Source: an uncultured Alphaproteobacteria bacterium (GTDB lineage Bacteria > Pseudomonadota > Alphaproteobacteria > RF32 > CAG-239). From it: a DNA stretch of 64,000 bases. Shown one piece after another: positions 5,285-63,294 of this stretch (within the stretch, counting starts at the first letter, position 1; each line of letters opens with the position of its first letter). The stretch is taken from positions 951 to 64,950 of the forward strand of contig CAKQRQ010000010.1 of assembly GCA_934271465.1 (NCBI GenBank). Direction: 5' to 3'. The notes beneath the pieces are model-generated. The model made no database searches. It was not told where the DNA came from and worked only from the letters and a program-made list of their open reading frames with translations. A program made the translations under genes and the position numbers.

Positions 5285-5503
5285 TTATTCGTGACAGGAA
5301 CATTCCGATCCGCACGTGCAAACGCTTGCATCGTGATAATAGCCGCCTTTACCATCTTCTTTGATGCAGCCGCAGTTATGCTTGGGTGTGCATCCGCACG
5401 GGCAGTCAACGTTATTGGGGTAGGTGCAGCCGCATTTGTTGTCATCATCGCAATCACAGCAATTGACATCGGGCACATCATCTCTGGTTCTGTATTTTTG
5501 CAT
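5285..5503 (-). CDS. small cysteine-rich (metallothionein-like) protein
   Basis: Start taken at the internal ATG (5501-5503) preceded by an aggaga RBS. The 72-aa product has about 17 Cys in CxC/CC/CxxC arrangements (NCCDCDDDNKCGCTYPNNVDCPCGCTPKHNCGCIKEDGKGGYYHDASVCTCGSECSCHE). Confidence 0.55.
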   Translation of the reverse strand: MQKYRTRDDVPDVNCCDCDDDNKCGCTYPNNVDCPCGCTPKHNCGCIKEDGKGGYYHDASVCTCGSECSCHE

Positions 5504-8606: not shown

Positions 8607-8810
8607 AATAATAGAGCGTTTAAACGCTCCAGTCATTTCCAAGAGATTTCAAAAAATACACTTTTTAAGCGAACTGTCAACACATTGAAAAATAACGAAA
8701 AATTAAAATTATTGCTTTTTTAATAATTGGCTGATATACTTAAACCAATAGAGCGTTTAAACGTTGGTTTAAACGCTAGAGTCGGAGCGTCAACCACGGG
8801 GTTTTGTCTT

Positions 8811-10181
8811 ATGAAACAGCTTATTTTTATCCTTTTTACTTTTTGTGTTATTTCAAACACTTACGCATCTGACGAGTGTTTACATCGTCCAAGCTGTGAA
8901 GAATCAGGCTATACGCAGACTCGAAAAAAGTGCGCTTGTTTCAATAAAGACGTGCTCCCGTGTCCGTTTAATATTAATGATGATAACACAGTTTTCTGCG
9001 GAGATTTAGACTGCACGGATAAATGTAAAGATTTGCTTCCATTTTATGACGGACAAAGCAATACAAAAAAGATTATTGAACAGGCCGGCGAAAAAGGATT
9101 AGCTGCTTATGCGACAAATCTATTTTATGTTGGCAACAAGACAGGAGATTTCGGCCAAGGCAAATGGTATCTACCCTCTATCGGCGAATGGATGGATTTT
9201 ATCGGAACGGATATGTCTCAGGTTACACAACTTCTCTGGAGCAGCGGAAGTATCGGCGATAAAATGACACAGATTGAAGCCTCCCTTAAAACTTTAGCAA
9301 CCAAAGGAGCAGATGCTGAAATTTTAAGAGGAACGACATGGAAAGCTTATACAACATCATCACTATATGATAATGGTAAAAGTTGGATAATAGATTTGGC
9401 ACTTAAGTCAAGAAAAGTTGGCTATTTTCACCAACCAAGCGGCGGTGGGGGAAAAGTCCGTGCTGCTTTAATGATACGAAATTGTTTTAATCCGACAATC
9501 GGCGGAATTCCACCTAAAATCGGCGATGTAATGTATCAAGACAAAACCTATGGCGCTGTATCTGAGTATGACGGCAGCAAAACACCCGTCGGGGTTGTTG
9601 TCTCTGTTTCCGAAACCGGCCGCGATGTCATTATTCTGAATCTGAAAGATTTGACCTTCAATTCACAAACAGCGGTAAATAACTTTAATCCAGATAATCC
9701 CTACGGCGAAACGATTAACGTAATAGCTTGGGGGGTGCAAACTGTGGCATTAACATTCGGCACGGATGATTTTGTGACCGATTTGCAATCTTCCTGTAAC
9801 TGTAATTGCATGTTTTATGGAGAAGAAACAAACTGCCCCAAGGTTGACCATTGTGCGAAATATGATGGAAGTTGCTCCTGTTCAGAATGTGAAGAGGGAT
9901 ATTTGCTAGCGTATCAAGATGAAAAAATAGTCTGTTTCAAATATGACGGATGTTTCGGATGTCTGGTAGATGCCGGCGAAACCTATTACCGATATCAGGA
10001 TTATAAAACATTTAAAGAATGTTATGCGGTTTGCGGACCGCATTGCGAGCTGATGTCTTGCGGCGGCGTAACAGAATGTTATACTTGTGAAGGGGCTACC
10101 CAAAAAAAATGGATGGACTATGATAATTGCAGCATAGATTGTGAGAATTGCATCAAAACAAACGCTTGCTATTTTGAATAG
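8811..10181 (+). CDS. secreted Cys-rich modular protein with central DUF1566-like (GKWYLPSIGEW) domain
   Basis: Start chosen at MKQLIFILFTFCVISNTYA (signal peptide) rather than the ORF-track ATG at 8727. Has N-terminal Cys-rich repeats, a central domain, and a C-terminal Cys-rich NCPKVDHCAKYDGSCSCSEC module; paralog of 40073-42037. Confidence 0.7.
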   Translation: MKQLIFILFTFCVISNTYASDECLHRPSCEESGYTQTRKKCACFNKDVLPCPFNINDDNTVFCGDLDCTDKCKDLLPFYDGQSNTKKIIEQAGEKGLAAYATNLFYVGNKTGDFGQGKWYLPSIGEWMDFIGTDMSQVTQLLWSSGSIGDKMTQIEASLKTLATKGADAEILRGTTWKAYTTSSLYDNGKSWIIDLALKSRKVGYFHQPSGGGGKVRAALMIRNCFNPTIGGIPPKIGDVMYQDKTYGAVSEYDGSKTPVGVVVSVSETGRDVIILNLKDLTFNSQTAVNNFNPDNPYGETINVIAWGVQTVALTFGTDDFVTDLQSSCNCNCMFYGEETNCPKVDHCAKYDGSCSCSECEEGYLLAYQDEKIVCFKYDGCFGCLVDAGETYYRYQDYKTFKECYAVCGPHCELMSCGGVTECYTCEGATQKKWMDYDNCSIDCENCIKTNACYFE

Positions 10182-10230
10182 TTCTCATTAAACTTGCCTA
10201 GACTAATGTAAAAACAGCCCAAAATAAAAA

Positions 10231-10355
10231 AAGTCTGATATTTAAGGCGGATAGAAAAAAAGTCGGCTCAAAACACAAAAAAAGGCGAAGAATAGTTAAG
10301 CCTACATGACCGAGCCGGTTCTTTGATAGTTCTGTATTAGTTGCCAGCTAGACGC
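10231..10355. repeat. intergenic repeat element copy A (second copy at 63121-63289)
   Basis: aagtctgatattt..gcggatagaaa..agtcggc..acacaaaaaaagg...gcctacatgaccgagccggttctt.gat.gttctgtattagttgccagctagacgc is shared near-identically with 63121-63289; followed by degenerate tandem aaaaaggcggatag units to about 10560. Confidence 0.8.
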
Positions 10356-10597
10356 GTTTTGAAAAAGGCGGATAGTGGAATTTATAGAGTGATTTGAAGG
10401 GCGGAAAAAATTTTAGCGTAGATAAACCTACGTGAATTTTTTCCGTCCCGCACAAATTGCTCACTTCTCTAAAAAGGCGGAGAATAGTGCAGATAAAGTG
10501 ATTTTGAGGGGTGGCGAAAGCGGAGTTTACATAACAGTAAATGAGCATTTCGCCATGCCACGTTAAAATCGCTCTAGATGCGCTGTTATACGCCTTT

Positions 10598-37693: not shown

Positions 37694-38935
37694 CTATCCG
37701 GCTTTTTTGACCTTGTGATGAATAAATTTTGGCGCTTTGCCGTCATTAATGACTTTGTCGTCAATGACAATCTCACTCAAATCATGCTCATCGGGCACAT
37801 CATACATCAACTCCAAAAGCGCCTCTTCCATAATGGCGCGCAGTCCGCGGGCGCCTGTTTTGCGCTCAATCGCTTTTTTGGCAATAGCTTTGAGCGCCGC
37901 ATCCGTAAAGGTCAGCTTGACGTTTTCCATCTCAAACATGGTTTTATACTGTTTGACAAGGGCGTTTTTGGGTTCGGTCAATACCTTAACCAAAGCCTTT
38001 TCATCCAAATCTTCCAAAGTGGCGATAATCGGCAGACGGCCGACAAACTCCGGAATCATGCCGTATTTGAGCAAATCTTCCGGCTGAACATCTTTGATAA
38101 TCTCGCCGATGTTTTTATCTTCCTTGGGAGCAACTTTGGCGCCAAAACCGATTGATGTTTCTTTGCCGCGGCGGCCGACGATTTTTTCAAGTCCGGCAAA
38201 AGCTCCGCCGCAAATGAATAAAATATTTGTTGTGTCGACATGCAAAAATTCTTGCTGCGGATGTTTGCGCCCGCCCTGCGGAGGCACATTGGCAACTGTT
38301 CCTTCAATAATTTTCAGCAGCGCCTGCTGAACGCCTTCGCCCGATACATCGCGCGTGATAGAGGCGCTGTCAGACTTGCGGGTAATCTTGTCAATCTCGT
38401 CGATATAAACAATGCCGCGTTGAGCTTTTTCGATATCATAATTGGCATTTTGAACCAGTTTTAGGATAATGTTTTCGACATCTTCGCCCACATAGCCGGC
38501 CTCGGTCAGGGTTGTGGCGTCAGCAATCGCAAACGGCACATCCAAAATCTTAGCCAGCGTCTGCGCCAACAAGGTTTTGCCGCTGCCGGTCGAGCCGATT
38601 AAAATGACATTGGACTTGGCAATCTCAACATCAGAATTTTTTTGAGAATTCAAACGTTTATAATGATTATAAACCGCCACTGAAAGGACCTTTTTCGCCA
38701 AATCCTGCCCGATAACATATTGATCCAAAAACTCTTTAATTTTGGAGGGCGTGGGCAGCTTGTCAAACATCACTTTGCCGTCGGCCTGTTCCATTTCTTT
38801 CATTTCGTCTGCGACAATATTGATGCAGACCTCAATACATTCGTTGCAGATATAAACTCCGCGGCCGGCCACGAGTTTTTTGACCTCATCCTGACTTTTG
38901 CCGCAAAAGGAGCAATGCAATTTTTCTTCAGCCAT
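37694..38935 (-). CDS. clpX: ATP-dependent Clp protease ATP-binding subunit ClpX
   Basis: N-terminal zinc-binding CSFCGK...CNEC, Walker A GSTGSGKT, sensor motifs. Confidence 0.95.
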
Positions 38936-38946
38936 TTTTCTTATCC

Positions 38947-39555
38947 TTATTTATTAAGTTCGCCGCGTGAGGTAACCACATGGTCAATCAGCCCGAATTT
39001 TTTGGCCTCTTCCGGCGTCATAAAGTTGTCGCGTTCCATAGCCGCCTCAATGATATTGAGCTTTTTGCCGGTATGGTGGGCATAAATCTGATTCAGGCGT
39101 TTTTTCATATCCAAAATCTCTTTGGCGTGGATTTCAATGTCCGTCGCCTGACCTCTGAACCCGCCGGAAGGCTGATGAATCATAATCCGCGCATTAGGAA
39201 GAGCAAAGCGCTTGCCTTTGGCGCCGCCGGCCAACAACAAAGACCCCATGGAGCAGGCCTGCCCGATACATAGAGTGTTCACATCGCAAGAAATATATTG
39301 CATTGTGTCATACATAGCCATGCCGGACGTGACAACGCCGCCGGGGGAGTTTATATAAAGGAAAATGTCCTTTTTGGGATCTTCCGCTTCCAAAAACAGC
39401 AGCTGCGCACAAACCAAAGACGAGACTTCGTCATTGACTTCGCCTGTCAAAAAGATAATGCGTTCTTTTAAAAGTCTCGAAAAAATATCATACGACCGCT
39501 CGCCGCGCGAGGTCTGCTCAATCACCATCGGAATAAGACTGTCTCTGATTTCCAT
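38947..39555 (-). CDS. clpP: ATP-dependent Clp protease proteolytic subunit ClpP
   Basis: Catalytic triad context [10 protein letters not shown] and HQP; start chosen at the internal Met. Confidence 0.95.
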
Positions 39556-39633
39556 AATTTGCCTTCCTTTTTTATAAACAAAAGTCACTTATCTAATGTA
39601 TCGCATATCATAATATATTCAACAAATGATTAA

Positions 39634-40017
39634 GAAAAGGCTTTTTTTAAGAAAAATGTTATTATTCAAAGTAGTCTTAATCTTATAAAATATTCAAAAT
39701 TTTATGCAGGATACGTTCCGACATTAACAGATACTGAAATTTTCAAATTAGACTGGAAAATCAACTTATTTGACGAAAGAGAAGAAGAAAATATAATAGT
39801 TAGTGATCAAGTTAGTGATCAAGTTAATAAAATTCTTGTGTTTTGTTCATCACCTCATTCATTAATTGAAATCATGGCTCAAACAAAATATACAAGCAAA
39901 GTGCATTTTAGAAACAAAATTTTGAAGCCTCTGATTGAGAAAGGTTTAATCAAACCGACAGCACCTGACAAACCCAATAGCCCCAAACAAAAATACCTTA
40001 CAGTAGGTAAAGAATAA
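39634..40017 (+). pseudogene. 5'-truncated remnant of a Fic-family protein gene (C-terminal about 125 codons, no start codon)
   Basis: Open frame with no ATG until codon about 80; translation ends ...ILVFCSSPHSLIEIMAQTKYTSKVHFRNKILKPLIEKGLIKPTAPDKPNSPKQKYLTVGKE. This resembles the conserved C-terminal wHTH tail of Fic-family proteins as I recall it (...PDKPxSxxQKY.LT). Contains a tandem 12-bp duplication gttagtgatcaa x2. Confidence 0.45.
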
Positions 40018-40072
40018 ACAATCTGTTATATTAATATCTCCGTGAAAGTTTTCACTTCCACGGAGATTTTTG

Positions 40073-42037
40073 TTATTGCGCAATACAGCTCAGCCCATCA
40101 TCCGAAAGCTCATATTCAACACCATAGGTGGAACTGCTACACCACCTACAAGAGCAATCATCTTGATAAGATCCGCAATGTTCTATTATGGGGCAATCCG
40201 AACTATTTGAATAGTCAATAACACAACGAATATGTTTTTGTGCACTCTTCTTATTTAATTGAAAGCTTGCCGTCCCTCTCTGAATAGCGACAAAGTAGGT
40301 AGATGAGTTTTCTGTTGAAGTTGCAAGATCTCCTATATGAAAATCATTACCACCCAAAACAGTTTTTGATCCAAACTTTAATGCCGAAGCATCAAAAAGA
40401 CAGACCATGGGATGTCCTTGTCCAATCATCGATAGAACTTCTGCGGCCGCTGGCAAATACCACTTACCTTTATCGGAATCTGTGACGCCATATTTGCTGC
40501 AATATACGGCTGCCGAATTTTCTTCAGCTCCGGCTGCAATGATACAATCTGTATTGGCCTGACCGTCTGTTCTGCTGTTACATCCGGTCTCCGTATTCGC
40601 CAAATTTTCACTCCAAGGAAGAGTAACCTCATCTAAAGATAGAGCTAACAGACGACCTGTATTGACATTGCTAGCCCTAAAAATTATACCTATCGGCGTT
40701 CTGTCTGACGGGAAATTGTCAGGATCATAACAGTTGAAATCATCATAAAGCACCATTCCAGGAACACATTCATCAGCAGAATAAACACATTTATTATCCT
40801 TCAACGTAAATCCTCTGGCGCAAACAGCGCATTCTGTTTCAGAAGCACATTGTTTACAATAATCTACGTCGCACATATCAGCATAGGTATGGCAATAGTT
40901 TTCCCTACAGCTTCCTTCAAATAAATATCCATCAAAAGACCTATCGCAAGCTGTACATTTACAACCAACCCATTCACTATCGTATTCAGAACAATTAGAA
41001 TCCGCTTTATAACATATCTCTCGACACTCATTAGTTTCACTATCAAACAGATATTTTCTAAACCCATTCTTACTGGAACAATCCTCACAAGCACAGGTAT
41101 CTGCATTAAAGGCCTTACCCTCAGCCGCACAAGTCGCCGCAGTCAAAGAACACGAGCAATCATAATAACATTGTGTGACGCTCGCCTCTCCGGCATAACC
41201 CGATCCGATATAAAAGTCGTTGCTACTGCAAGAATAATTTTCCGGTTCCGCATCAAGATAATCAGAATTAACTTCCTGACAATTTCTATAGCACGTGACA
41301 CACTGGCCATTATACAAGCATTTATCCGCACCTTCACAACAATCCGCATCATAACAAGTTGTCTTCTCGGCATTACTTGGAGCTACTCCAATCCAATATT
41401 GTGGATCAACCGGACAATCGTTTGCGGTAGATTGAAGATTTTTTGCCGGACTTTGCGCTGCTCCGGCCGCGGCACAGCTTGGATAATAAGGCGTGCAAAC
41501 ACCATTATCATCAACTTCCGTCGCTTTGCAGCATTTTGAATTATAACAAATTTTCTTTTGGAGAGAAGCATTTCCGTCAATATAAATGACAACTGTTTCG
41601 CAACCCGTATCTTCATCTGAATATCCCGCACTATGGCAATCTTTATAAGGCTTCCGGCAATTCCCGTCAATCTTATAATACCCATCCGGACAGCAATGAA
41701 TATAACAAGTTGTTTCTTCCCCTTTGACATAGATTTTAACCGTGCCGCAGCCTTGAGAAGTCGTATAATAACCGGCATCTTCACAGCTGTCATAATTTGG
41801 ATAACACAACTCGTTGACTTCTATCTTTCCATCAGGGCAGCTGCCGCTTGCCCCGCCGCAAAAAAGCTTGGTTGTATCAAACGGGCATCTGACGATTTGT
41901 TTGCCGTCACATTCCTCAAGGGTATTGACATACCCCATCTCATCACAGGTGGGCTCCACCGACGGACAGTCTTGTGAAGAGGCCGGATTGGCAAGCAATA
42001 TAGCCATAAGTCCGAGAAGAAGATATTTCTTTTCCAT
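40073..42037 (-). CDS. secreted, extremely Cys-rich modular protein with DUF1566-like (GKWYLP) domain
   Basis: Signal peptide MEKKYLLLGLMAILLANPASS; dozens of Cys in repeated CxxxGY...GC modules; DUF1566-like core CSKYGVTDSDKGKWYLPAAAEV; C-terminal DCPIIEHCGSYQDDCSCRWC module homologous to the 8811-10181 C-terminus. Confidence 0.7.
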   Translation of the reverse strand: MEKKYLLLGLMAILLANPASSQDCPSVEPTCDEMGYVNTLEECDGKQIVRCPFDTTKLFCGGASGSCPDGKIEVNELCYPNYDSCEDAGYYTTSQGCGTVKIYVKGEETTCYIHCCPDGYYKIDGNCRKPYKDCHSAGYSDEDTGCETVVIYIDGNASLQKKICYNSKCCKATEVDDNGVCTPYYPSCAAAGAAQSPAKNLQSTANDCPVDPQYWIGVAPSNAEKTTCYDADCCEGADKCLYNGQCVTCYRNCQEVNSDYLDAEPENYSCSSNDFYIGSGYAGEASVTQCYYDCSCSLTAATCAAEGKAFNADTCACEDCSSKNGFRKYLFDSETNECREICYKADSNCSEYDSEWVGCKCTACDRSFDGYLFEGSCRENYCHTYADMCDVDYCKQCASETECAVCARGFTLKDNKCVYSADECVPGMVLYDDFNCYDPDNFPSDRTPIGIIFRASNVNTGRLLALSLDEVTLPWSENLANTETGCNSRTDGQANTDCIIAAGAEENSAAVYCSKYGVTDSDKGKWYLPAAAEVLSMIGQGHPMVCLFDASALKFGSKTVLGGNDFHIGDLATSTENSSTYFVAIQRGTASFQLNKKSAQKHIRCVIDYSNSSDCPIIEHCGSYQDDCSCRWCSSSTYGVEYELSDDGLSCIAQ

Positions 42038-42198
42038 GGGTCAAATCCTCCAAACACAAACGCAGCCGCCGTTTCCAAAAACAGCCACCTATACATATAT
42101 TTTAGTTTAACATCAAATAATTAAAAAAACAATAACTTTTATTTTGATTAAAAAAAGCTCCGATTCCTCGGAGCTTTTCAAATAAGCAGGCTTTTGCC

Positions 42199-43554
42199 TT
42201 AAGCTGACTTTTTAGAAGCTTTCTTAGCCGGCTTTTTGGCATCGTCAAAGCGATACAATTCCTCAACCGAAACCTTTTTATCGTTCAATTTGGCCAATGA
42301 AACAATATGGTCAATGATTTTTTCTTCAAAAATCGGCGCCTTCAAAGCCTCAACAGCCTGTTTATTCTTCAGATAATAATCTAAAACAGCCTGTTCCTGC
42401 CCCGGATATCTCTTAGCCTCGTTCATAATAGCGGCGTTGATATCTTCCGGCTTAATCGAAACTTTGGCATTCTGTCCGACCTCAGACAACAACAAGCCCA
42501 ATTTAACGCGGCGGATAGCAATATCTTTGTATTCTTTAAGCAAATCAGCCTCTTTTTTGCTCTTTTCTTCTTCATCAAGTTGGTTATATTTCTTAGCCTG
42601 TTCATATTGGTTGACAATAGCTTTGTATTCCGCATCAACCAAAGACTCCGGAACTTCAAAAGAATATTCCTTATCCAAAACATCCAACAACTGGCGTTTC
42701 AATTTCATGCGGGAGGCATTTTCATAGTCGGATTTAATACGCTTTTCCAAAGTCTCCCTCAATTTAGCAAGGCTCTCCGCGCCCAAAGACTTGGCCAACT
42801 CGTCATTAATCTCAACCTCTTTAGGCTCGCGGACTTCTTTAACCGTTACGGCAAAGACAGCGTCCTTGTCCGCCAAATCTTTGGCATGGTAATTGGCAGG
42901 AAATTTAACCTTAACATCTACCTTTTTACCGGCTTCAACCCCGATAAGCTGATCTTCAAATCCGGGGATAAACGAACCTGAGCCCAGCTCCAAAGGATAA
43001 TTATCGCCCTTGCCGCCCTTAAATTCGACACCGCCGACCGACCCGACAAAGTCAATCATAACTGTATCACCCTTAGCGGCCTTTTTGCCGTCGACTTTAA
43101 CAGTCTCTTTGCGGGCCTGAGCCAAATATTTGACAGCCTTGTCAACTTCCTCGGCCGGAACATCGGCAACAAATTTATCCAAAGAAATCTTCGAAAAATC
43201 ACCGAGCTTAATTTCAGGCAAAACCTCAACATCCATCTCAAATTCAAGATCTTTGCCCTCGCCGAAAGCCGTAATTTTAACGGCAGGCTGAGTTGCCGGA
43301 CGAAGTTTCTTCTCGTCCAAAACCTTGTTTGAGCCGTTGCGGACGGAATCATCCAAAGCCTCGCCCATCACTTCTTTTTCAAATTTTTTCTTAATCATGG
43401 CCAAAGGCGCTTTGCCGGCTCTGAATCCTTGAATTTTGGCAGTCTTGGCAATCTGAGCCAATTTCGCGTCAACCTCTTTGGCAAATTCTTCCTTGGGCAT
43501 AACGACTTTATAAGATTTTTTGAGCCCTTTGGCTTTTAATTCGGTAACTTTCAT
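42199..43554 (-). CDS. tig: trigger factor
   Basis: 451-aa ORF with N-terminal ribosome-binding domain, FKBP-like middle and C-terminal arms. Confidence 0.9.
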   Translation of the reverse strand: MKVTELKAKGLKKSYKVVMPKEEFAKEVDAKLAQIAKTAKIQGFRAGKAPLAMIKKKFEKEVMGEALDDSVRNGSNKVLDEKKLRPATQPAVKITAFGEGKDLEFEMDVEVLPEIKLGDFSKISLDKFVADVPAEEVDKAVKYLAQARKETVKVDGKKAAKGDTVMIDFVGSVGGVEFKGGKGDNYPLELGSGSFIPGFEDQLIGVEAGKKVDVKVKFPANYHAKDLADKDAVFAVTVKEVREPKEVEINDELAKSLGAESLAKLRETLEKRIKSDYENASRMKLKRQLLDVLDKEYSFEVPESLVDAEYKAIVNQYEQAKKYNQLDEEEKSKKEADLLKEYKDIAIRRVKLGLLLSEVGQNAKVSIKPEDINAAIMNEAKRYPGQEQAVLDYYLKNKQAVEALKAPIFEEKIIDHIVSLAKLNDKKVSVEELYRFDDAKKPAKKASKKSA

Positions 43555-45117: not shown

Positions 45118-46131
45118 CTAAACCGCTTTTTTTGTATCTTGATTGGCAATTTCCTGCATTCTGAAAAGCTTAAGCCGCTCAATCTGCTGTTTCTTAACAT
45201 ATTTGAGATATCCCTCATAGCCGAACAGCACAAAGGCCGACAAAATCAACGGCAGTAGGTAATAGATAATGCGGTAAGCCAACAGCGCGCCAAACAGCAT
45301 CGCCCGATTATGGTCGCCGGGGATAATATACATAAACAGCCCCTCAAACACGCCCAATCCGCCGGGAACCTGACTGAACACGCCCAAAACCTGCGCAATG
45401 ATAAACACGCCCATAAAGGTCGAAAACGGAATATCGACAAAGGCAATCAGCGAGAAATAGAGCACCAGCGAGGCCATCAAAATATCCGCACCCCCGATAA
45501 TGACCTGAGCCAAAGCCATGGGCGGCCGCGGCATATCAAGCTCAACGCCTTTGATAATCAAAGGTTTGCGATACCAGATGCTCAAAGCAAAATACCCCAA
45601 AAGGCCGACTGCCGAAATCAGCGTGACTACCTCGGTTGTCAGTTTTGACACGGAACCGTCGCCAAAAGCGTGATTCGGCGTGATAAAATAGCCGATGATA
45701 ATCAGCAAAAAGCACGCGACCAAATAAGTAAAGCCCGAAAACGTAACCATGCGGACAATCTCGGTGCCTCTGAAACGCCATCTGGTATAGAGGCGATAGC
45801 GGATTGTGCCGCCGGAAACAATGGCATGACCGGCGTTGTTGCTGACCGAAAAGCCGATAAATCCGGCAAAAATCCATTTCCACGGCGCAAGCTTCCGCCC
45901 GATGTAGCGCAAGGCCAAATAATCATACGAGGACAACGCGACATAGCCCAAAAACGACGCCGCGCACGCCATCAACAGATTGTGCGGCGGGATAGACATC
46001 AAAGCATTTTTGATGTCCTCAAGGCTGTATTTTGAAAGCTGGCGATAGAGCATATACGCCGCCACGCCAAAGAAAAACAGCCCCGCCCAAGAGAGAGCCT
46101 TTTTGAGAATCTTTTTTGTCTGAACCGCCAT
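45118..46131 (-). CDS. UPF0104 / lysylphosphatidylglycerol-synthase-TM-like (flippase-like) membrane protein
   Basis: About 8 TM helices, start at MAVQTKKILKK; last gene of the minus-strand glycan operon. Confidence 0.55.
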   Translation of the reverse strand: MAVQTKKILKKALSWAGLFFFGVAAYMLYRQLSKYSLEDIKNALMSIPPHNLLMACAASFLGYVALSSYDYLALRYIGRKLAPWKWIFAGFIGFSVSNNAGHAIVSGGTIRYRLYTRWRFRGTEIVRMVTFSGFTYLVACFLLIIIGYFITPNHAFGDGSVSKLTTEVVTLISAVGLLGYFALSIWYRKPLIIKGVELDMPRPPMALAQVIIGGADILMASLVLYFSLIAFVDIPFSTFMGVFIIAQVLGVFSQVPGGLGVFEGLFMYIIPGDHNRAMLFGALLAYRIIYYLLPLILSAFVLFGYEGYLKYVKKQQIERLKLFRMQEIANQDTKKAV

Positions 46132-46256
46132 TTGATGCCTCTGTAAAAATAAATAAACCCAACTGTGACAAGTTATAATTTGAATATACATAACCGTCAA
46201 TATTTAAAATATAATTACCTTGGCAAAAATTTTTGGAAAGAAAAGAGTGTGGTAAA

Positions 46257-47204
46257 CTAAATTTTCTGCAAAAGTAATTTCTTATAATATTTAGGCAAAA
46301 AAACAAAACCATAACTTTTTGCCAAAAATTTACGCACCTTATAAAAAGGAATAGTTTTCAGAAGTTTTGCAATTTTTTCTATCCGACTTACAAGTTCTGG
46401 ATGACGATAAATACTCCCAGAATAAGTCATCGTGCAAATACCGTTATAGCGTTTTTTGTATTCATAATCACCGCCCAATAAATAAGCTTTTTTCTTATGA
46501 TTATTAATCCAGCTCTCAATAATATTATGATAAAGAACCATTCCGATAGAGTATTTAGAATACTCAAGGTCATAGGCAAAATTTTCAAAATAGACATTTT
46601 CTTTATTTGTCTCTGAATCAAAACCGATAGCTATAATTTTACTGCCAGTTTTCAATAAATATGCATTAGAAACGCCAAAATCTTTTAAATACAAATTAGG
46701 ATCATATGAAAAATCGTGAGATATTTTTTTCCAAGATAAATACAAATCAACAATATCTTGAGAAATCATTTCTTTCTCTATTTTTTCAAAACAAATATTT
46801 CCAACCTCTGTCAACAACTTTTTGGCATAATATCTGGCATGTTGTCTTTCTTTTCCCGAAAGTTGAGCATCAAATTCCTCAATAGTTTGAGGCAAATCAA
46901 TATGCCAATGCGGCGCCGCTTTAATAGTTGAAAAAGGAGTATAAGTATGCAAAATAGAAATTTCTAAAATATTAGAATTCGAAGAAAACACATAATTCGC
47001 AAACTCTAGCAAATTTTCTTTTCCTATATTTCTCAAATACAATCCAGCCAGACAAACATTGCCCTGCAAATGAATCGGAATCAATATTCCACTATCTAAC
47101 TCAACTAAATTATAATCTGTTCCAAATAGTAAATCAAATCTGTTATGTATAACATCAGGATCTATATTAAACAGCTTTGCTTTTAACAATTTCGCCATCA
47201 TCAA
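46257..47204 (-). CDS. putative FemAB/CelD-like (GNAT-fold) acyltransferase
   Basis: 315-aa AT-rich ORF; weak resemblance to Acetyltransf_6/FemAB family; C-terminal IPFYKVRKFLAK motif. Confidence 0.35.
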   Translation of the reverse strand: MMMAKLLKAKLFNIDPDVIHNRFDLLFGTDYNLVELDSGILIPIHLQGNVCLAGLYLRNIGKENLLEFANYVFSSNSNILEISILHTYTPFSTIKAAPHWHIDLPQTIEEFDAQLSGKERQHARYYAKKLLTEVGNICFEKIEKEMISQDIVDLYLSWKKISHDFSYDPNLYLKDFGVSNAYLLKTGSKIIAIGFDSETNKENVYFENFAYDLEYSKYSIGMVLYHNIIESWINNHKKKAYLLGGDYEYKKRYNGICTMTYSGSIYRHPELVSRIEKIAKLLKTIPFYKVRKFLAKSYGFVFLPKYYKKLLLQKI

Positions 47205-47229
47205 TCTCTAAATAATTAAATTTACAGTT

Positions 47230-48186
47230 CTAATATTTTAAAAATAGCTTAAATTTTTTTCTGATTTTCTTTATCGGAAAAAGACAAACAACAGGCCTTA
47301 AAATCAACTTAATAAACGACATAAATAGCAATTTATATTTAATCTTGTTCAAATCAATACATAAACTCTGCAATGCGCACAATAACTCTCTTTGCACTTT
47401 AAATACTTCCTCATCACTAATATCATAATTTTTAACAAGATTATTCAAATCCGCTTCACAAAATTCATAATTCGATAAATCTAAAGGTTCCTTTTGTTTA
47501 TTAAATACAGAATAGTAATCATAAAATTTATAGCGGCTAGTTGTTTCTTCTGAAATCCTAACCCACTGATTGGGAATACGTAAAGCATCACACGCTATTA
47601 GCGGATGCATCGCCGTAGAAATAACGGCTTTACACTCACACATATCATGCAAAAATTTGTCAACAGAAAGCGTAGCATCTAAAATTTTGGAATTTGGTAT
47701 ACGCCCCGTAATTTTGGAAAAAACTTTGCTATCTCTATCTGCATAATGAGGCACTATTCCTAATTCATATTTCTTTTCAATCTTATCAGAATCAATAAGG
47801 TAACTAACTAACAAACCACCATCACCTAAAACAGCTCCAGTCGAATGGCCTAACATTTTAGATATACGAGCCTCCGTTAATTTACCACGAAGAGCATAAC
47901 ACTTTACATTACGCCTTAATTTTTCTGGTAAAATAATATTAGGATTATGAAAAAATTTTCCCTCCTCAAAGCCTATACCCGTAGAAAATAACCAAATAGG
48001 GTTTTCTTTAAATATATGGTCTTTAGTATCCATTAAGAGCATATCGCCTAAAGAACCTATTCCCATAATCATCGCAAAATCCACAGGAGCAAATCTAATT
48101 TTAATTTTTGCTAATTTAGAAAAAATAATAGGATTCAAAGCATCTCCAAAATTAGGTATATCACAGTAAAAAAAAGGAATTTTCAT
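47230..48186 (-). CDS. polysaccharide pyruvyl transferase family protein
   Basis: N-terminal FFYCDIPNFGDALNPIIF is typical of PS_pyruv_trans (CsaB/WcaK-like); C-terminal FPIKKIRKKFK motif. Confidence 0.6.
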   Translation of the reverse strand: MKIPFFYCDIPNFGDALNPIIFSKLAKIKIRFAPVDFAMIMGIGSLGDMLLMDTKDHIFKENPIWLFSTGIGFEEGKFFHNPNIILPEKLRRNVKCYALRGKLTEARISKMLGHSTGAVLGDGGLLVSYLIDSDKIEKKYELGIVPHYADRDSKVFSKITGRIPNSKILDATLSVDKFLHDMCECKAVISTAMHPLIACDALRIPNQWVRISEETTSRYKFYDYYSVFNKQKEPLDLSNYEFCEADLNNLVKNYDISDEEVFKVQRELLCALQSLCIDLNKIKYKLLFMSFIKLILRPVVCLFPIKKIRKKFKLFLKY

Positions 48187-48224
48187 TATATTTTCTCCAA
48201 ATTTTATAAAAAAATAATTTGCTG

Positions 48225-48812
48225 TTATTTCAAATAATTTTTAAAAATATCCTCTCTAACCCACTCTCTTGGCAATTCATTCACTTGAGGATAACTCATA
48301 CAAGCCTCATCCAAATTGTCATAATTTAACTTATCTCTCCACCCAACTATTTTAGCAGGATTGCCTGCTACTATAGCATACTTGGGAATACTTTTAGTTA
48401 CAACACTACCTGCACCAACAATTACACCATCATCTATTTTTACTCCACCTAATATGATACATCTAACACCTATCCATACGTTTCGGCCAATTTCGACATG
48501 TCTCAATAAACCTATATGATCATAGGGAATGCGCGTAGAACTCTTATAATTATGACAGGTAGTGAGAATTAAAGAATCTTCTCCTAACTTCGAATATTCA
48601 CCTATTGAAATCCCCCCCTCAGCATACAATTTACATCCCCTTCCTATATACACATTACCACCAAGTTCAATGTTTTCAATAAACCGACATTCTGCTGTTG
48701 GTTCAATAACATTTTCCTTGTAAATTTTTGGCAAATGTTCTTTTTTGTATTCAATTTGTAGTTTTTTACGAATTTTCTTTAATGGTATTAAATTTATCAT
48801 CCATTTTTTCAT
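48225..48812 (-). CDS. hexapeptide-repeat (LbH) O-acetyltransferase
   Basis: Left-handed beta-helix repeats (NVYIGRGCKL, IGRNVWIGVRCIILGGVKIDDGVIVGAGSVV); N-terminal LIPLKKIRKKL motif. Confidence 0.75.
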   Translation of the reverse strand: MKKWMINLIPLKKIRKKLQIEYKKEHLPKIYKENVIEPTAECRFIENIELGGNVYIGRGCKLYAEGGISIGEYSKLGEDSLILTTCHNYKSSTRIPYDHIGLLRHVEIGRNVWIGVRCIILGGVKIDDGVIVGAGSVVTKSIPKYAIVAGNPAKIVGWRDKLNYDNLDEACMSYPQVNELPREWVREDIFKNYLK

Positions 48813-49555
48813 AATTTGCCTTTCAAATACCTTGTGATAGGAATGAGTCTAAATGCCTCAGCATAATTTACATTATTCGCCATACACCCCCTATAAATAT
48901 TCAATCCCAATATGCGTGGAATTAAATTATATTTTACCCATTGCGATTTATACAACTTTAGAGCTTGTTTTTTTACAGAGACAACCTGTGAGATATCTTC
49001 ATAATAATTTGGAGATTTAAGAGGAGACCAAACTTCATAAAAGCCTATAATTGTATCTTTATTATAGCCTTTTCTACGTATAATTTCTTTAGCAAGAACA
49101 TTTGTTATGTATTTATGTTCTATATGTTCATCATAAGGATTAGGCAAAAAAATATAATCATACCTTAATATATCTAACACAGCACAATAATCTTGAAACA
49201 TTTCGTTAATTTGATCAATAAAGGGAGGCTTTCCAAAAGTTTTAAATATCCACCTATTTTGAACCCCCAACATATCCATAACTTTGTTAAATTCCACAAT
49301 CCTAATATCAGCCCGTTCTTCAGCTTGAATATCTCCATAAGCAACCCCTGAGCTTGAAACACAACAAACATCAAAATTTTTAGTATATTTAATAAGCATT
49401 CCTCCCATCCCTAGCATTTCATCATCTGGATGAGGAGCAATCAAAAGACATCGTGTATCACTTTCTATGCTTAAATCAATGTGACGAAAATAATATTTTC
49501 GTAGTTTATGCCTTAATTTCTTATTAGGAATAAAATTTATTAACCACTTCCACAC
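48809..49555 (-). CDS. PIG-L/LmbE family N-acetylglucosaminyl deacetylase
   Basis: LLIAPHPDDEMLGMGG motif; N-terminal FIPNKKLRHKL motif. Confidence 0.75.
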   Translation of the reverse strand: MWKWLINFIPNKKLRHKLRKYYFRHIDLSIESDTRCLLIAPHPDDEMLGMGGMLIKYTKNFDVCCVSSSGVAYGDIQAEERADIRIVEFNKVMDMLGVQNRWIFKTFGKPPFIDQINEMFQDYCAVLDILRYDYIFLPNPYDEHIEHKYITNVLAKEIIRRKGYNKDTIIGFYEVWSPLKSPNYYEDISQVVSVKKQALKLYKSQWVKYNLIPRILGLNIYRGCMANNVNYAEAFRLIPITRYLKGKL

Positions 49556-49567
49556 AATACAAACCCC

Positions 49568-50527
49568 TCATCTTTTCACATTATATAAAGACTTGCGCAT
49601 TCTTTTTAATTTTTTGCGAAAAGTTTTTATCGGCATTAATTTTAAACAGAGCCACAAAAAAAACGACTTAAGATAAACAATGTTTGTCGGAAAAAAATAA
49701 TCTTTGTTATAAAAAGGTGAAGTTTCAATATATGAAAAATATTCTTTTGATATTTCAGTATATGCTCTATTCCATATTTTAGGATTCCTTCCAGCATAGT
49801 GAATAATTTTAGGATTAGCCTTTGCTTCCTGAAGCTCTGCATCAGAATACACATGTGAAAGCCAAGGATACTCAGGAGCTAAATTTATAGGGTAATCAAA
49901 TATATTCTCCAAAACACAATAATTAAAAGGTATTTCCAAAATCTTATCAACAGACAAATTCAAAACATCTAAGTCAAACATTTTTAATTCTGAGTTAAAA
50001 TCCTTTATAGTCTGAAAAAAACGCGAAAGCATATTTTTATTTCGCCATTGTTTAGCATTTATAAGCATAAAACCAGACATATAAATATACGGTTTGGAAT
50101 TTGACTTGAAATGCGTATGAACACCATTCTTTTCATCCTGCCGTTCAGCTACAACCCCTGCCCAATCATAATCAGATAAATCCATATTATATATCTCTGT
50201 CAAATCTCCACGAAATAAAACATCAACATCTGACCAAATTATTTTATCATATTCTTTAACAACATCCGCAATAAGCAATCTATAATAAACAGATATTGGC
50301 CAATTCTCTGAGATTGGTGCATTAGAAAAAAAATCACATACTTTAATCCATCTAATATATGGACATACGCACCCCATTTTGGAAATTGTCTTTTCACTCA
50401 AATTTCCATATAATACAATTATGTCATATTCTGTATCAAAGTTCCTATGTTTTAATAAAGATGAAATAGCAATACTTGCGGGAAGAGCATACCTATCATC
50501 AAAAGCAAAAACTATGGGTATTTTCAT
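49568..50527 (-). CDS. glycosyltransferase family 8
   Basis: IVFAFDDRYALPASIAISSLL, YYRLLIADV..., DVDVL (DxD); C-terminal MPIKTFRKKLK motif. Confidence 0.75.
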   Translation of the reverse strand: MKIPIVFAFDDRYALPASIAISSLLKHRNFDTEYDIIVLYGNLSEKTISKMGCVCPYIRWIKVCDFFSNAPISENWPISVYYRLLIADVVKEYDKIIWSDVDVLFRGDLTEIYNMDLSDYDWAGVVAERQDEKNGVHTHFKSNSKPYIYMSGFMLINAKQWRNKNMLSRFFQTIKDFNSELKMFDLDVLNLSVDKILEIPFNYCVLENIFDYPINLAPEYPWLSHVYSDAELQEAKANPKIIHYAGRNPKIWNRAYTEISKEYFSYIETSPFYNKDYFFPTNIVYLKSFFLWLCLKLMPIKTFRKKLKRMRKSLYNVKR

Positions 50528-60335: not shown

Positions 60336-62357
60336 TCATCCAAACAAGGCAAGCACGCTCTGGGCGGAATTTGCAGCAAGGGAAAGAGCGTTGGTGGCGA
60401 GTTGCTGGCGGGTTTGGAGCGCCAAATAATTCGCAGATTCCTCGTTCATATCAGCCAAAACGAGATTATCAGCCCCTGTTTCCAAAACATCTGTCAAAGC
60501 CTCGGTAAAATTTTGACGTGTCTGAATAATACTGTAATTGTTGCCTAATTCTGATTGAAATGTGCGAATTTTGTTAACCGCCGCCAAGAGCTCTTGAATT
60601 GAGTTTGCGATATCTCCCTGCGTTGTCCATTCAGCTTTGGTCAGTCCTAACGCGGCGGAACTCATATCCTTTCCTTGGACTGTTAGTTTGTTGTTTCGGG
60701 TTTCGTTGAACACAACGTCCAATTTTTCATTTTTGAGTAAATTAACGCCTTGATATGATGAGTCATTAATTAATTTATCATACTGCTCAAAAGCTTTGTT
60801 ATATTGATCGATGAGCGAGTCAGCAATTTGTCTGGTCGACGTATCTGAAGAAAATGTATTTGTAACTTCAATCTCACCGCGGGTTTGAAGCAGTGAAGAG
60901 AATATATCGTTTTCAAGGTTTTGAATCCCCGTAATGTCTATATTTCTATTGCCCCAATATGTCACTTTAAACCTCCCGCCATACGGATTATCCGGATTAA
61001 AATTCCCCGTGCCGAAAAATGAGCTAAACGTCAAGTCCCTCAGGTTGATAATTGTCGCATCGCATCCGTCTCCCGAGACGGCCGCAATCACGCCGACGAC
61101 CTTTTTGCTGCCGTTGTAATCCGCCGCCAAACCCCACGTTTTATCTTCATACATGACGTCGCCCACTTTGGGCGCCGTTCCATCCGCGGACGGATTAAAA
61201 ATATTTTTTAAAAGCTGAGAACAACGCATGGCGCCCGTGAAATCCTTATAATAGCTTTCCAAGTCGCCATCACTTCCGTCGATCCTCCATGAAGTGCCTG
61301 AAGTCTCCTCAGACGAGGACCAATAAGGAAAGGAGCGGAGAGCTGCCGCATCAACACCTTTGGTAGCAAGCGCATTCAAGGCGTTATTGATAAGGAGCAT
61401 CTTATCGCCTATAGCACCGGTTAAGCTGCCTCTGCCCGTTATTTTGCTAGTGTCTGTGCCGTAAAATTCCATCCACTCGCCTATTGAAGGCAAATACCAT
61501 TTACCTTGGCCGAAGTCGCCGTTTTTGTCACCGACATAAAATTGGCTTGCTGCACTGGCTGCCAGTCCGGCTTCTCCGATTTGGTCGAGAATGGCTTTTG
61601 TATTTGCTTGTCCGTCGTAAATCTCCATTGCTGCAACATTGCCATTGGCAAGTCTTTGCGCCCCTGTGCCGCTAACCGTAATTCCAAAGGTATTATCTAA
61701 CGTCAATTTACCGCCGTTCAACACCCTGATACCGGCAACTTTTTCTCCTGAGGCGAAAATTTTCAAATTGCTAATGCTTGCACTGTTTCCGGTTCCATCT
61801 ATCTCTATGGCTGATTTACCGGATTCTGTAGCAGTGTAAGAGATTTTGTGCCCGTTGCCGTCTAAAGTCACATTCGCCGCTGTGATACGGAGCTCAGTTG
61901 TTAAGGTAATGTCGCCTGAAAGGACAACTTTTGCGCCTGCGGCAATAGCGGCTTGAAGCTCTGCCTCTGTGCCAACGGCCGTATAGCCCTCGGCGATATA
62001 ATCTTCTATCGATTTGCCCGCTGTCGTCCCTGAACCTGAGGCACTGCCGATTTGGCTCAAGGCCTCGTTTGCAACGGCCGAGGCTTGTTCGAGGAATGAG
62101 GCACCGCTTGTCAGGCCTTGCGTCGCCGCTTGGATTGTTTGTATCCCCTGTCCCATCGCGTCTAATAAGGCGTCTAAATCCGAGGCTCTGTTTGTGAGAG
62201 CTCTTGCTTGATAATAGCTTGAGGCATTATCAATTGCGGAATTGACTTTCTTTCCTGTCGAAAGCCTTTCCTGTGTCGTGTTCATTTGTTTGGAGATGTT
62301 TTTCAGGCTGTTTAAGTTGCTCCGCATTGACGCCGTCAGCGTGATACTCTTTACCAT
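60336..62357 (-). CDS. flagellin-family protein with large inserted central domain (beta-helix-like plus DUF1566-like module)
   Basis: N-terminus SITLTASMRSNLNSLKNISKQMNTTQERLSTGKKVNSAIDNASSYYQARALT... and C-terminus ...ANYLALQTRQQLATNALSLAANSAQSVLALFG match flagellin D0/D1 helices. The central about 400 aa includes repetitive beta-helix-like strands and FYVGDKNGDFGQGKWYLPSIGEWMEFYGTD, nearly identical to the 8811-10181 protein. Confidence 0.7.
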   Translation of the reverse strand: MVKSITLTASMRSNLNSLKNISKQMNTTQERLSTGKKVNSAIDNASSYYQARALTNRASDLDALLDAMGQGIQTIQAATQGLTSGASFLEQASAVANEALSQIGSASGSGTTAGKSIEDYIAEGYTAVGTEAELQAAIAAGAKVVLSGDITLTTELRITAANVTLDGNGHKISYTATESGKSAIEIDGTGNSASISNLKIFASGEKVAGIRVLNGGKLTLDNTFGITVSGTGAQRLANGNVAAMEIYDGQANTKAILDQIGEAGLAASAASQFYVGDKNGDFGQGKWYLPSIGEWMEFYGTDTSKITGRGSLTGAIGDKMLLINNALNALATKGVDAAALRSFPYWSSSEETSGTSWRIDGSDGDLESYYKDFTGAMRCSQLLKNIFNPSADGTAPKVGDVMYEDKTWGLAADYNGSKKVVGVIAAVSGDGCDATIINLRDLTFSSFFGTGNFNPDNPYGGRFKVTYWGNRNIDITGIQNLENDIFSSLLQTRGEIEVTNTFSSDTSTRQIADSLIDQYNKAFEQYDKLINDSSYQGVNLLKNEKLDVVFNETRNNKLTVQGKDMSSAALGLTKAEWTTQGDIANSIQELLAAVNKIRTFQSELGNNYSIIQTRQNFTEALTDVLETGADNLVLADMNEESANYLALQTRQQLATNALSLAANSAQSVLALFG

Positions 62358-63120: not shown

Positions 63121-63289
63121 AAGTCTGATATTTGGAGCGGATAGAAACAAAAGTCGGCACAATACACAAAAAAAGGTGGATAGCGTGCGCAAATAATAAG
63201 AACTGAGAAAACCGGCGACGGGAGTGTAGTTGAGCCTACATGACCGAGCCGGTTCTTCGATTGTTCTGTATTAGTTGCCAGCTAGACGC
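63121..63289. repeat. intergenic repeat element copy B (related to 10231-10355, with about 47-bp internal insertion)
   Basis: Direct sequence match to copy A at both ends; additional shared motif ttttccgtcccg(a/c)acaaattgctc at 63085-63110 and 10437-10465. Confidence 0.8.
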
Positions 63290-63294
63290 CTTTT

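Follow-up and report, generated by a model that had tools for sequence, protein, structure and literature searches.

Our analysis of the window, a 64,000-nt stretch of contig CAKQRQ010000010.1 from an uncultured alphaproteobacterium, suggests to us that two of its Cys-rich reading frames, ORF A and ORF B (Table 1), rather probably encode exported ligand-binding proteins of the adhesin type, in which binding cassettes common to the flagellar filament are carried on disulfide-rich stalks. Both frames are present at the positions that an earlier note on this DNA had given, and the modular, Cys-rich family with signal peptides that it had proposed is borne out; the family to which the two ORFs belong is a large one. 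The same note held that the architecture fits no characterised family. This stands for the architecture of ORF A and ORF B, which is uncharacterised (the relatives with names are all annotated "hypothetical protein"), while the DUF1566 domain itself, the family now called Lcl_C (PF07603) in Pfam, already has one characterised member, Lcl.

Table 1. Positions in the window of ORF A, ORF B, the flagellin and their parts
Feature	Coordinates	Strand	Description
ORF A	8811..10181	+	456-aa precursor: signal peptide, Nmod, permuted Lcl_C-like D1, Cys-rich tail
ORF A signal peptide	8811..8867	+	aa 1-19, predicted cleavage after ...NTYA; read from sequence
ORF A Nmod	8871..9026	+	aa 21-72, C-x4-6-C-x2-LGY-x-C-x-CPF[DN]-x-[FY]C
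ORF A D1 core segment	9027..9476	+	aa 73-222, "DGQxNT ... FGQGKWYLPSIGEW ... WSSSE ... VR", Lcl_C/DUF1566-like
ORF A D1 beta segment	9477..9794	+	aa 223-328, "PKIGDVMYxDKTYG..DGSKTPVGVV..V.ILNLKDL..NFNPDNPY", after core
ORF A Cys-rich C-terminal tail	9795..10178	+	aa 329-456, 21 Cys, four CxxC
ORF B	40073..42037	-	654-aa precursor: signal peptide, Nmod, four Cys repeats, linker and furin/EGF-like Cys modules, D2, C-terminal Cys module
ORF B Nmod	41852..41974	-	aa 22-62
ORF B tandem Cys-rich repeats	41150..41851	-	aa 63-296, four units of ~50-64 aa
ORF B junction linker "SLTAATCAAEGKAFNADTCACEDC" and CxxC-rich modules	40778..41149	-	aa 297-420
ORF B D2	40202..40777	-	aa 421-612, Lcl_C/DUF1566-like, canonical order: beta segment, then GKWYLP core
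ORF B C-terminal Cys module	40076..40201	-	aa 613-654, homologous to ORF A aa 335-360
ORF B recombination tract	40033..41148	-	3' 1.1 kb of ORF B and 40 nt beyond stop
Flagellin	60336..62357	-	673 aa, D1 domain in hypervariable region
Flagellin D1 insert	60891..61628	-	aa 244-489, 49% identity to ORF A, Lcl_C E 0.0065
Flagellin beta-helix-like segment	61629..62045	-	aa 105-243, Pectate_lyase_5 E 2.4e-4 (sub-cutoff)

The ATG of ORF A at 8811 agrees with the N-termini of homologues and with the 456-aa NCBI call for the orthologue MDD7313069.1, and an orthologue with 96% identity, P0001, occupies the same locus in another sample. Other gene callers chose an alternative start, TTG 8727. Both proteins, for which signal peptides had been described, have a typical Sec-type leader, read by eye here too, with predicted cleavage of MKQLIFILFTFCVISNTYA before SDEC in ORF A and of MEKKYLLLGLMAILLANPASS before QDC in ORF B; the ORF A leader is kept in homologues. 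It is this leader peptide from which both proteins would be called secreted or extracellular. No lipobox, autotransporter or LPXTG motif is present in ORF A or ORF B, and we rejected lipoprotein anchoring because no lipobox precedes the first Cys and an A-x-A cleavage site lies 2-3 residues upstream. Neither gene is adjoined by a secretion system, an anchor motif or a Dsb gene, so the proteins could remain periplasmic; export past the periplasm is presumed in our reading.

ORF A and ORF B are confirmed by their alignments as paralogues, homologous beyond Cys-richness, as the earlier note had supposed. Cys accounts for 31 of 456 residues in ORF A (6.8%) and for 63 of 654 in ORF B (9.6%), the "many dozens" previously remarked on for the larger protein, versus 2 of 673 in the flagellin. 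BLASTP between the two ORFs aligned the GKWYLP core (E 1e-7), the C-terminal Cys module (E 5e-5), the N-terminal module (E 2e-4) and a "GDVMY...PVGVV" piece (E 0.007). With Cys positions held fixed, none of 2000 shuffles reached the observed local alignment score for any of these four modules (z of 12, 4.4, 10 and 9.2, respectively). The domain with the GKWYLP core had been placed centrally in both proteins; this is its position in ORF A, but in ORF B it is C-terminal, at aa 421-612.

The N-terminal module, Nmod, has five invariant Cys and matches no Pfam family; in 102 of the 262 relatives that we collected it stands right after the leader, at aa 20-30. An Nmod HMM run over 78 loci found two ORFs only, so not every family member has the module; in Cys-rich D1 proteins of the P0022 type the N-terminus is different, and a 43-column Nmod alignment used as a homologue-search query gathered just 3 candidates. 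Repeated CxxC and a C-x-C-x2-C...GY-x-L...C spacing mark the Cys modules. The ORF A tail contains the module CAKYDGSCSCSECEEGYLL...C, and the complete tail is common only to the P0001 cluster. Each tandem unit of ORF B has six Cys, with CC dipeptides at its bounds and C..AGY motifs inside. AF2 confidence lies below 50 both in these repeats and in the ORF A tail, where the models are too uncertain to read; the ORF A Nmod reaches a pLDDT of 72-92. EGF-like or furin-like repeats gave no Pfam match at E<=1 for either ORF. For the ORF B middle region (query pLDDT 67-84) the best Foldseek match, R-spondin Fu1-Fu2, is weak (E about 0.1, probability 0.4-0.6), and the weak top matches also include Pfs25 EGF domains. 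Cys spacing is similar in R-spondin Fu1-Fu2 and Pfs25, but neither sequence (no Pfam match) nor structure (Foldseek E>=0.1) matches significantly, and the proteins here are bacterial. Their Cys content suggests that ORF A and ORF B may be disulfide-knotted, although in a strictly anaerobic gut organism it is uncertain whether disulfides form. Nmod and the Cys-rich spacers would form disulfide- or metal-stabilised, protease-resistant stalks.

The domains that these stalks would carry (D1 in ORF A and in the flagellin, D2 in ORF B) are DUF1566-like, as had been proposed, by a transitive profile link. A direct Pfam scan gave no Lcl_C match for ORF A and sub-threshold ones for ORF B (13.9 bits, E 0.07) and the flagellin (17.2 bits, E 0.0065), the gathering cutoff being 34.9 bits. 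A D1 profile search returned 1278 relatives at E<=1e-3. Lcl_C is matched in 34 of 40 sampled D1-profile relatives (best E 1.8e-30), many direct homologues carry a precomputed PF07603.18 match, and a profile of the Lcl_C-type relatives searched against the PDB had 8q4e, the Lcl C-terminal domain, as its sole match (E 3.9e-5). Through these intermediates, the kinship of D1 and D2 with Lcl_C/DUF1566 is secure at the level of sequence, and a C-type-lectin-like fold is predicted for both. The AF2 model of ORF A has pLDDT >90 over roughly aa 30-335, and that of D2 has 75-94 over aa 420-540; Foldseek against the PDB found nothing significant for the ORF A or ORF B models. When the full-length alignment A1 was searched against PDB sequences, the flagellin ends dominated and the matches were Caulobacter flagellins.

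Alignment to canonical-order relatives shows that the segments of D1 have been exchanged in position. The beta segment precedes the core in Lcl, 4eps and ORF B D2, the last being colinear with canonical-order relatives, whereas ORF A aa 78-204 align with aa 197-338 of the relative P0163 (E 2e-15) and ORF A aa 224-310 with its aa 92-170 (E 2.5e-9). The flagellin insert has the same swap relative to P0163.

The occurrence of the domain inside the flagellin, which the earlier note had pointed out, is strongly confirmed: ORF A aa 76-329 and flagellin aa 244-489 are 49% identical (E 1e-69). The insert sits between Flagellin_N (12-103) and Flagellin_C (592-672), neither of which Pfam finds in ORF A or ORF B. 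Its neighbouring beta-helix-like segment is also common to secreted Nmod proteins, and flagellin aa 111-483, most of the hypervariable region, align with aa 79-538 of the Nmod protein P0037 (E 8e-77). Among GTDB representative genomes, 67 of 81 D1 ORFs are flagellins; the other 14 are Cys-rich, reaching 1807 aa in length with 4-5 D1 copies. One MAG has 11 flagellin paralogues, in which D1 is 70-82% identical, whereas the last 90 aa have a median identity of 90%. Flagellins with inserts in the hypervariable region, such as flagellinolysin, have been attributed to intragenic recombination (PMC5595980). The likeness lies in a foreign globular domain between Flagellin_N and Flagellin_C that is displayed on the filament, while the insert here is non-enzymatic, lectin-like and common to Sec-exported Cys-rich proteins. 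Among the papers that our search covered, none ties DUF1566 to a flagellin insert. Because D1 occurs in both settings, the filament and the stalk proteins would present the same binding module.

The 67 flagellins among the 81 D1 copies also suit a reading that we judge unlikely, namely that D1 serves chiefly as an outer structural part of the filament, self-associating into a lattice or sheath that stabilises the filament or tunes motility in mucus. Cys-rich proteins with D1 would then not be host or particle adhesins, but would attach to filaments or cross-link them via D1-D1 contacts, or be a side effect of domain duplication. Trimerisation is also mediated by the DUF1566 domain of Lcl (PMC11162425), and the strongest-conserved D1 motifs make up the predicted domain core, with no obvious binding pocket. 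However, canonical-order relatives with Nmod and without flagellin parts are numerous, and some relatives have 4-15 matched stretches of the D1 profile and resemble adhesins. Column entropy in D1 is highest at ORF A aa 186-218, after the WSSSE motif. This most variable part is the loop region through which C-type-lectin folds bind ligand, and a conserved self-contact should not vary there.

Where the source of a relative is named, it is an uncultured gut alphaproteobacterium, except for one short contig binned as Clostridia, and carriers recur in gut metagenomes of humans (Hadza, Nepali, Brazilian), ruminants, deer and mice. The family is a mosaic. The recombination tract of ORF B has 90.5% DNA identity to the paralogue L079, versus 97.9% (5') and 89% (3') for its flanks against L082, the tig-locus allele; in other strains, the source paralogue of the tract is found at kpsF-lptCAB-rpoN / deoA. 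By these identities ORF B is a chimera of two loci, with a 5' part from the tig-locus allele and a 3' 1.1 kb from a paralogue elsewhere, and provides a clear, datable case of cassette exchange among paralogous loci.

Variation here is a matter of paralogue divergence and recombination, not of mutagenic retrohoming. Among the targets of diversity-generating retroelements in human microbiomes, DUF1566, for which 4eps is the structural model, is the commonest variable ligand-binding domain, and in gut microbes it serves as a variable ligand-binding scaffold (PMC4159848), whereas this window holds neither a reverse transcriptase nor a template/variable repeat pair. As such a pair is absent, we rejected a diversity-generating retroelement in this window; it has three short direct-repeat families only, none of them in ORF A, ORF B or the flagellin. 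An intergenic repeat shared beside ORF A and the flagellin matches no Rfam family and is barely present in other loci. In 4eps, which is Bacteroides ovatus BACOVA_04982, both D1 sequence motifs are recognisable, but the N-terminal part differs from those of ORF A and ORF B and the segment order is canonical.

Mosaic genes arising by exchange among paralogues, many divergent flagellin paralogues in one MAG, and the same exposed domain on flagellin and on leader-bearing proteins would also fit a main role in antigenic variation or as an immune decoy. Shed D1 proteins would absorb anti-flagellar secretory IgA, shuffling would serve escape, and there would be no specific ligand. The high Cys content and CxxC motifs also recall the variant surface proteins of Giardia, a gut-lumen organism, which are Cys-rich with CxxC. 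We give this explanation a low probability. The window shows no invertible promoters, silent cassettes or other switching mechanism, and the superfamily is used for binding in Lcl, in diversity-generating retroelement targets and in phage proteins (PMC11162425, PMC4159848; phrog_4245). Decoy and adhesion roles are, moreover, compatible and not mutually exclusive.

The earlier note had listed adhesin, lectin, toxin and antimicrobial scaffold as possible roles; homology favours the first two, and the last two find no support. That ORF A and ORF B are toxins, bacteriocins or enzymes on a Cys-rich scaffold strikes us as very improbable. This proposal draws on the general likeness that toxins and antimicrobial peptides bear to small, secreted, Cys-rich proteins and on the CHAP or Phage_base_V matches carried by single relatives. 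Scans of both ORFs against Pfam, NCBIfam and PHROGs, however, gave sub-threshold or unknown-function matches only and no toxin, enzyme or defence family. The conserved residues form no catalytic constellation, no immunity or export genes adjoin either ORF, and the mature proteins, at 437-633 aa, are not peptide-sized. ORF B D2 matches the C-terminal part of a phage family (phrog_4245, E 3.4e-6). That ORF A and ORF B stem from a prophage or tail fibre was rejected, as their neighbours are housekeeping genes and there is no prophage context.

For a binding role, one close comparison is Lcl of Legionella pneumophila, a type-II-secreted, surface-associated, GAG-binding adhesin in which a C-type-lectin-like DUF1566 domain forms the binding head on an elongated stalk and is kept at the cell surface (PMC11162425). 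Lcl (8q4e) has the W-Y-L-P and YWSS...VR motifs in common with the proteins here, and its precursor also has a signal peptide. Its stalk, in contrast, is a collagen-like triple helix without Cys, where ORF A and ORF B have Cys-rich modules; its segment order is canonical where that of D1 is swapped; and the 8q4e chain has ~130 aa versus ~255 aa for D1. Lcl binds sulfated GAGs via a basic face of its trimer, whereas D1 and D2 are acidic (median pI of D1 domains, 4.8), and this acidity disfavours Lcl-like electrostatic GAG binding. EPN, QPD and WND motifs are absent from ORF A D1, ORF B D2 and the flagellin D1, Pfam Lectin_C matches neither ORF, and D1 has 1-2 Cys where classical C-type lectins have conserved intradomain disulfides. 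With D1 acidic and lacking EPN/QPD/WND, the mechanism of Lcl is not transferable, and nor is that of classical lectins. As ligand we consider a glycan or surface polymer probable, and a sulfated GAG bound electrostatically improbable.

We read ORF A and ORF B as putative exported binding proteins that belong to a lineage-specific, fast-recombining family in uncultured gut Alphaproteobacteria. Each would consist of a Sec leader, the five-Cys Nmod with a variable number of Cys-rich spacers, and then at least one Lcl_C/DUF1566-type, C-type-lectin-like domain acting as a ligand-binding head. The putative heads come in two topologies, canonical in ORF B D2 and swapped in D1 of ORF A and the flagellin, and D1, and in relatives the whole hypervariable-region cassette, is built into the surface-exposed region of flagellin. 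Specificity may be diversified by divergence of the loop region after "WSSSE" and by cassette exchange among paralogous loci at conserved linker sequences. More speculatively, and with considerable doubt, we envisage a system of exchangeable "binding-head" cassettes, in which the circularly permuted Lcl_C domain, at times with the beta-helix domain, recombines between the surface-exposed region of multiple flagellin paralogues and Sec-exported stalk proteins of a class not described before (with the five-Cys Nmod and furin/EGF-like repeats absent from Pfam). Together these would make one coordinated repertoire for adhesion or antigenicity that can be re-assorted rapidly, a counterpart in bacteria of the eukaryotic Cys-rich variant surface proteins.

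These findings point to ORF A and ORF B, with an Lcl_C-like domain also on flagellin, as an unstudied, rapidly shuffled adhesin system. If our reading holds, likely adhesins of these uncultured gut Alphaproteobacteria have been identified, and new disulfide-rich module families can be added in Nmod, the CC-bounded repeats and the junction linker. The natural segment-swapped version of the Lcl_C fold would, with these modules, be useful for domain databases and protein engineering. A lectin-like head would likewise be present in flagellin across the whole lineage, with at least 11 paralogues in one genome, and, if true, would matter for how flagella adhere, for recognition by TLR5 and IgA, and for the architecture of the filament.

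A and B, the two Cys-rich mosaic ORFs, are both intact and contain 31 and 63 Cys, respectively, the dozens foreseen for the larger one, as compared to 2 in the 673 aa of the window flagellin. The start of A (ATG at 8811) agrees with homologue N-termini and with NCBI's own 456-aa orthologue call. By eye, both proteins carry a putative signal peptide, basic and then hydrophobic, with a small-x-small site 2-3 residues ahead of the first mature Cys. The earlier note had proposed paralogues with both Cys modules and a GKWYLP domain in common. BLASTP recovers the GKWYLP core (E 1e-7) and the Cys modules at the C terminus (E 5e-5) and the N terminus (E 2e-4), and it also aligns a fourth stretch, 'GDVMY...PVGVV' (E 0.007). 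As a control, non-Cys residues were permuted in one member of each pair while Cys positions stayed fixed (2000 shuffles per module); the real score was reached by 0/2000 shuffles in each of the four modules (z = 4.4 to 12). The similarity therefore does not stem from Cys content, and the alignment is significant beyond Cys-richness.

Features of the window discussed in the text
Feature	Position	Strand	Description
ORF A	8811-10181	plus	intact ORF, 456 aa
ORF B	40073-42037	minus	intact ORF, 654 aa
B segment resembling the other locus	40033-41148		3'-terminal 1.1 kb of B and the next 40 nt past the stop
tig-clpP-clpX cluster	37694-43554		usually contiguous; B sits within it
Flagellin	60336-62357		third GKWYLP copy; Flagellin_N aa 12-103, Flagellin_C aa 592-672
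Second module of flagellin hypervariable region	61629-62045 (aa 105-243)		beta-helix-like 'Pectate_lyase_5 putative adhesive domain', E 2.4e-4, sub-threshold
Cys-rich small ORF	5288-5503	minus	72 aa from its Met; 15 Cys; motifs CCDC, CGC, CPCGC, CGC
Small ORF upstream of flagellin region	63295-63558	minus	87 aa; clear signal peptide (MKKFFAVMAAVLAFTTVAHA)
Non-coding element, copy 1	10227-10360		just 3' of A
Non-coding element, copy 2	63117-63294		~0.8 kb upstream of flagellin start
Palindrome AGAGCGTTTAAACGCTC(T), copy 1	8613-8630		intergenic, upstream of A
Palindrome AGAGCGTTTAAACGCTC(T), copy 2	8752-8777		intergenic, upstream of A
Low-GC island	46000-53000		GC 0.30 vs about 0.44 elsewhere

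Direct Pfam scans place Lcl_C (PF07603, formerly DUF1566) below threshold in B and the flagellin and give no Lcl_C match in A; an NCBIfam scan of A and B gave no match. The intermediates are more telling. PF07603 matches are precomputed in many of A's 92 homologues, and a profile of 28 diverse segments of D1, the domain at A aa 73-328 and in the flagellin insert, retrieved 1278 proteins at E<=1e-3 (236 at E<=1e-10) from 1.8 billion cluster representatives. Among 40 more distant relatives, 34 match Lcl_C (best E 1.8e-30), and their profile finds a single PDB match, the Legionella Lcl C-terminal domain (8q4e, E 3.9e-5). Through these intermediates, the DUF1566-like assignment stands despite the sub-threshold direct scores. 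In Lcl, this domain forms a C-type-lectin-like, trimeric head on a collagen-like stalk; the protein is exported by a type II system, is retained at the cell surface, and has sulfated glycosaminoglycans as ligands (PMC11162425). In human microbiomes, DUF1566 is also the domain that targets of diversity-generating retroelements carry most often, and Bacteroides ovatus BACOVA_04982 (4eps) serves as its structural model (PMC4159848).

In canonical relatives (e.g., P0163 and P0158), a beta segment, 'IGDVxYxDG...K.PVGVV...GKVI.LKDL', lies ahead of the core, 'YDGK.NT ... G.G.WYLPS.GEL ... YWSS ... VR'. Lcl, 4eps, and D2, the counterpart domain in B, have this same order, and B aligns colinearly with canonical proteins, whereas in A and the flagellin the core comes first and the beta segment second. 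A 78-204 matches P0163 197-338 (E 2e-15) and A 224-310 matches P0163 92-170 (E 2.5e-9), and the flagellin insert gives the same swapped alignment. The reversed order makes D1 an Lcl_C unit that has undergone circular permutation or a subdomain swap.

The proposal that the same domain occurs inside the flagellin is borne out by 49% identity between flagellin aa 244-489 and A aa 76-329 (E 1e-69). Domain insertion into the flagellin hypervariable region is a known principle (PMC5595980). The beta-helix-like module beside D1, for which Pectate_lyase_5 matches are precomputed in several homologous flagellins, recurs in secreted proteins bearing the five-Cys N-terminal module Nmod (e.g., P0037 and P0032). 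P0037 aligns with most of the hypervariable region, the beta-helix-like part and D1 together (E 8e-77). Whole cassettes are therefore common to flagellins and stalk proteins, the leader-bearing Cys-rich carriers of D1/D2 heads. A rough neighbour-joining tree, in which the window flagellin D1 adjoins stalk-protein D1s apart from the main 40-member flagellin clade, hints that exchange may have happened more than once. Of 81 D1-bearing ORFs in GTDB representative genomes, 67 encode flagellins and the remaining 14 encode Cys-rich proteins, the longest of 1807 aa. One MAG, BRZ_CT bin33, has an unusually large repertoire of at least 11 D1-insert flagellin paralogues, with strain mixing possible in the bin (L025, L028, L030, L036, L038, L044, L045, L048, L050, L055, and L070); their inserts are 70-82% identical, against 90% (median) over the last 90 aa. 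Near the flagellin, the 87-aa ORF has a mature part rich in Lys/Ala/Glu that is probably helical. The low-GC island encodes GT2, GT2 with a cytidylyltransferase domain, GT4, and GT8 glycosyltransferases, is flanked by an LPG-synthase-like gene and prfC-ppiC-secA-flagellin, and was probably gained horizontally.

B is itself a mosaic. Over aa 1-295 it shares 84-89% identity with the N-termini of P0095 and P0096, and over aa 292-654 it shares 89-90% with the C-termini of P0093 and P0094; the remaining halves of all four are unrelated to B. P0095 occupies B's position just downstream of tig; P0093 lies with P0098 between kpsF-lptC-lptA-lptB-rpoN and deoA-deoC. At the DNA level, tig and the first 750 nt of B match the tig-locus allele at 97.9% identity, the 3' segment matches the other locus at 90.5%, and the downstream flank returns to the tig-locus allele (89%). 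We conclude that recombination between paralogous loci made B a chimera, with its 5' junction inside the conserved linker 'SLTAATCAAEGKAFN'. The tig-position allele of another strain (P0095, locus L082) has 891 aa and a different 3' half.

The A orthologue sits at the same locus, between an Lnb_N/DUF7840 protein and macB of a MacAB-type efflux cluster; P0002, with 81% identity over 80% of A's length, adjoins bipA, a different place. The palindromes upstream of A are terminator-like in appearance, the second lying within a 5' extension given to A by some gene callers. The two non-coding copies have two blocks in common (90-94% identity) and match no Rfam family, and a 38-nt piece recurs 3' of a flagellin in locus L065 (11398-11435); the element may have a regulatory function, encode a small RNA, or be left over from recombination.

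Relatives from named sources belong to uncultured Alphaproteobacteria MAGs (some labelled Azospirillaceae, Rhodospirillales, 'proteobacterium', or 'bacterium') from human, roe deer, rumen, and mouse gut samples; a 1.7-kb contig binned as Clostridia is probably a binning error. Nmod, with five invariant Cys (C-x4-6-C-x2-LGY-x-C-x-CPF[DN]-x-[FY]C), directly follows the leader in 102/262 collected proteins. Other modules are six-Cys repeats with CC dipeptides at their borders (four in B), a 'C..Y...C.C..C..GY.L....C' module (64 copies in 32/110 proteins), the junction linker 'L.A..CA...K.FN...C.CE.C', and the D1 or D2 heads, present once or several times, with up to 15 D1 profile stretches in some proteins. 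The Cys modules of A and B match no Pfam family, and the middle of B shows only weak similarity to the furin-like repeats of R-spondin and the EGF repeats of Pfs25 (E about 0.1). With every named member annotated 'hypothetical protein', the suggestion that no characterised family has this architecture holds. The superfamily is already known; in the literature searched and in Pfam, we found no description of a permuted Lcl_C unit, of its use as a lineage-wide flagellin outer domain, of its occurrence in both flagellin and Sec-exported Cys-rich stalk proteins, or of Nmod and the repeat modules. Separately, the 72-aa ORF, between a thioredoxin-reductase-like gene and greA, has neither a signal peptide nor a Pfam match and may be a metallothionein-like protein or no real gene.

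Lcl binds glycosaminoglycans electrostatically, whereas D1 domains are acidic (median pI 4.8), and classical Ca2+-dependent sugar binding relies on EPN/QPD/WND motifs, which D1 domains lack, so that neither mode can be assumed. The flanks of A and B contain no secretion or Dsb genes. Of the rival readings, a mainly structural function of D1 in the filament, or self-association there, seems unlikely to us, as does antigenic variation or a decoy function for the family; that A and B are toxins or enzymes has no support and is very improbable. Rather, what is known of the superfamily (Lcl as an adhesin, other members as variable receptor-binding proteins, and a phage family matched by B's D2), the leader peptides and giant multi-head relatives, and the concentration of D1 variability after the WSSSE motif (A aa 186-218) point to A and B as exported, stalk-mounted binding proteins, which would be disulfide-bonded, would pass beyond the periplasm, and would act in adhesion, with the head also displayed on the flagellar filament.
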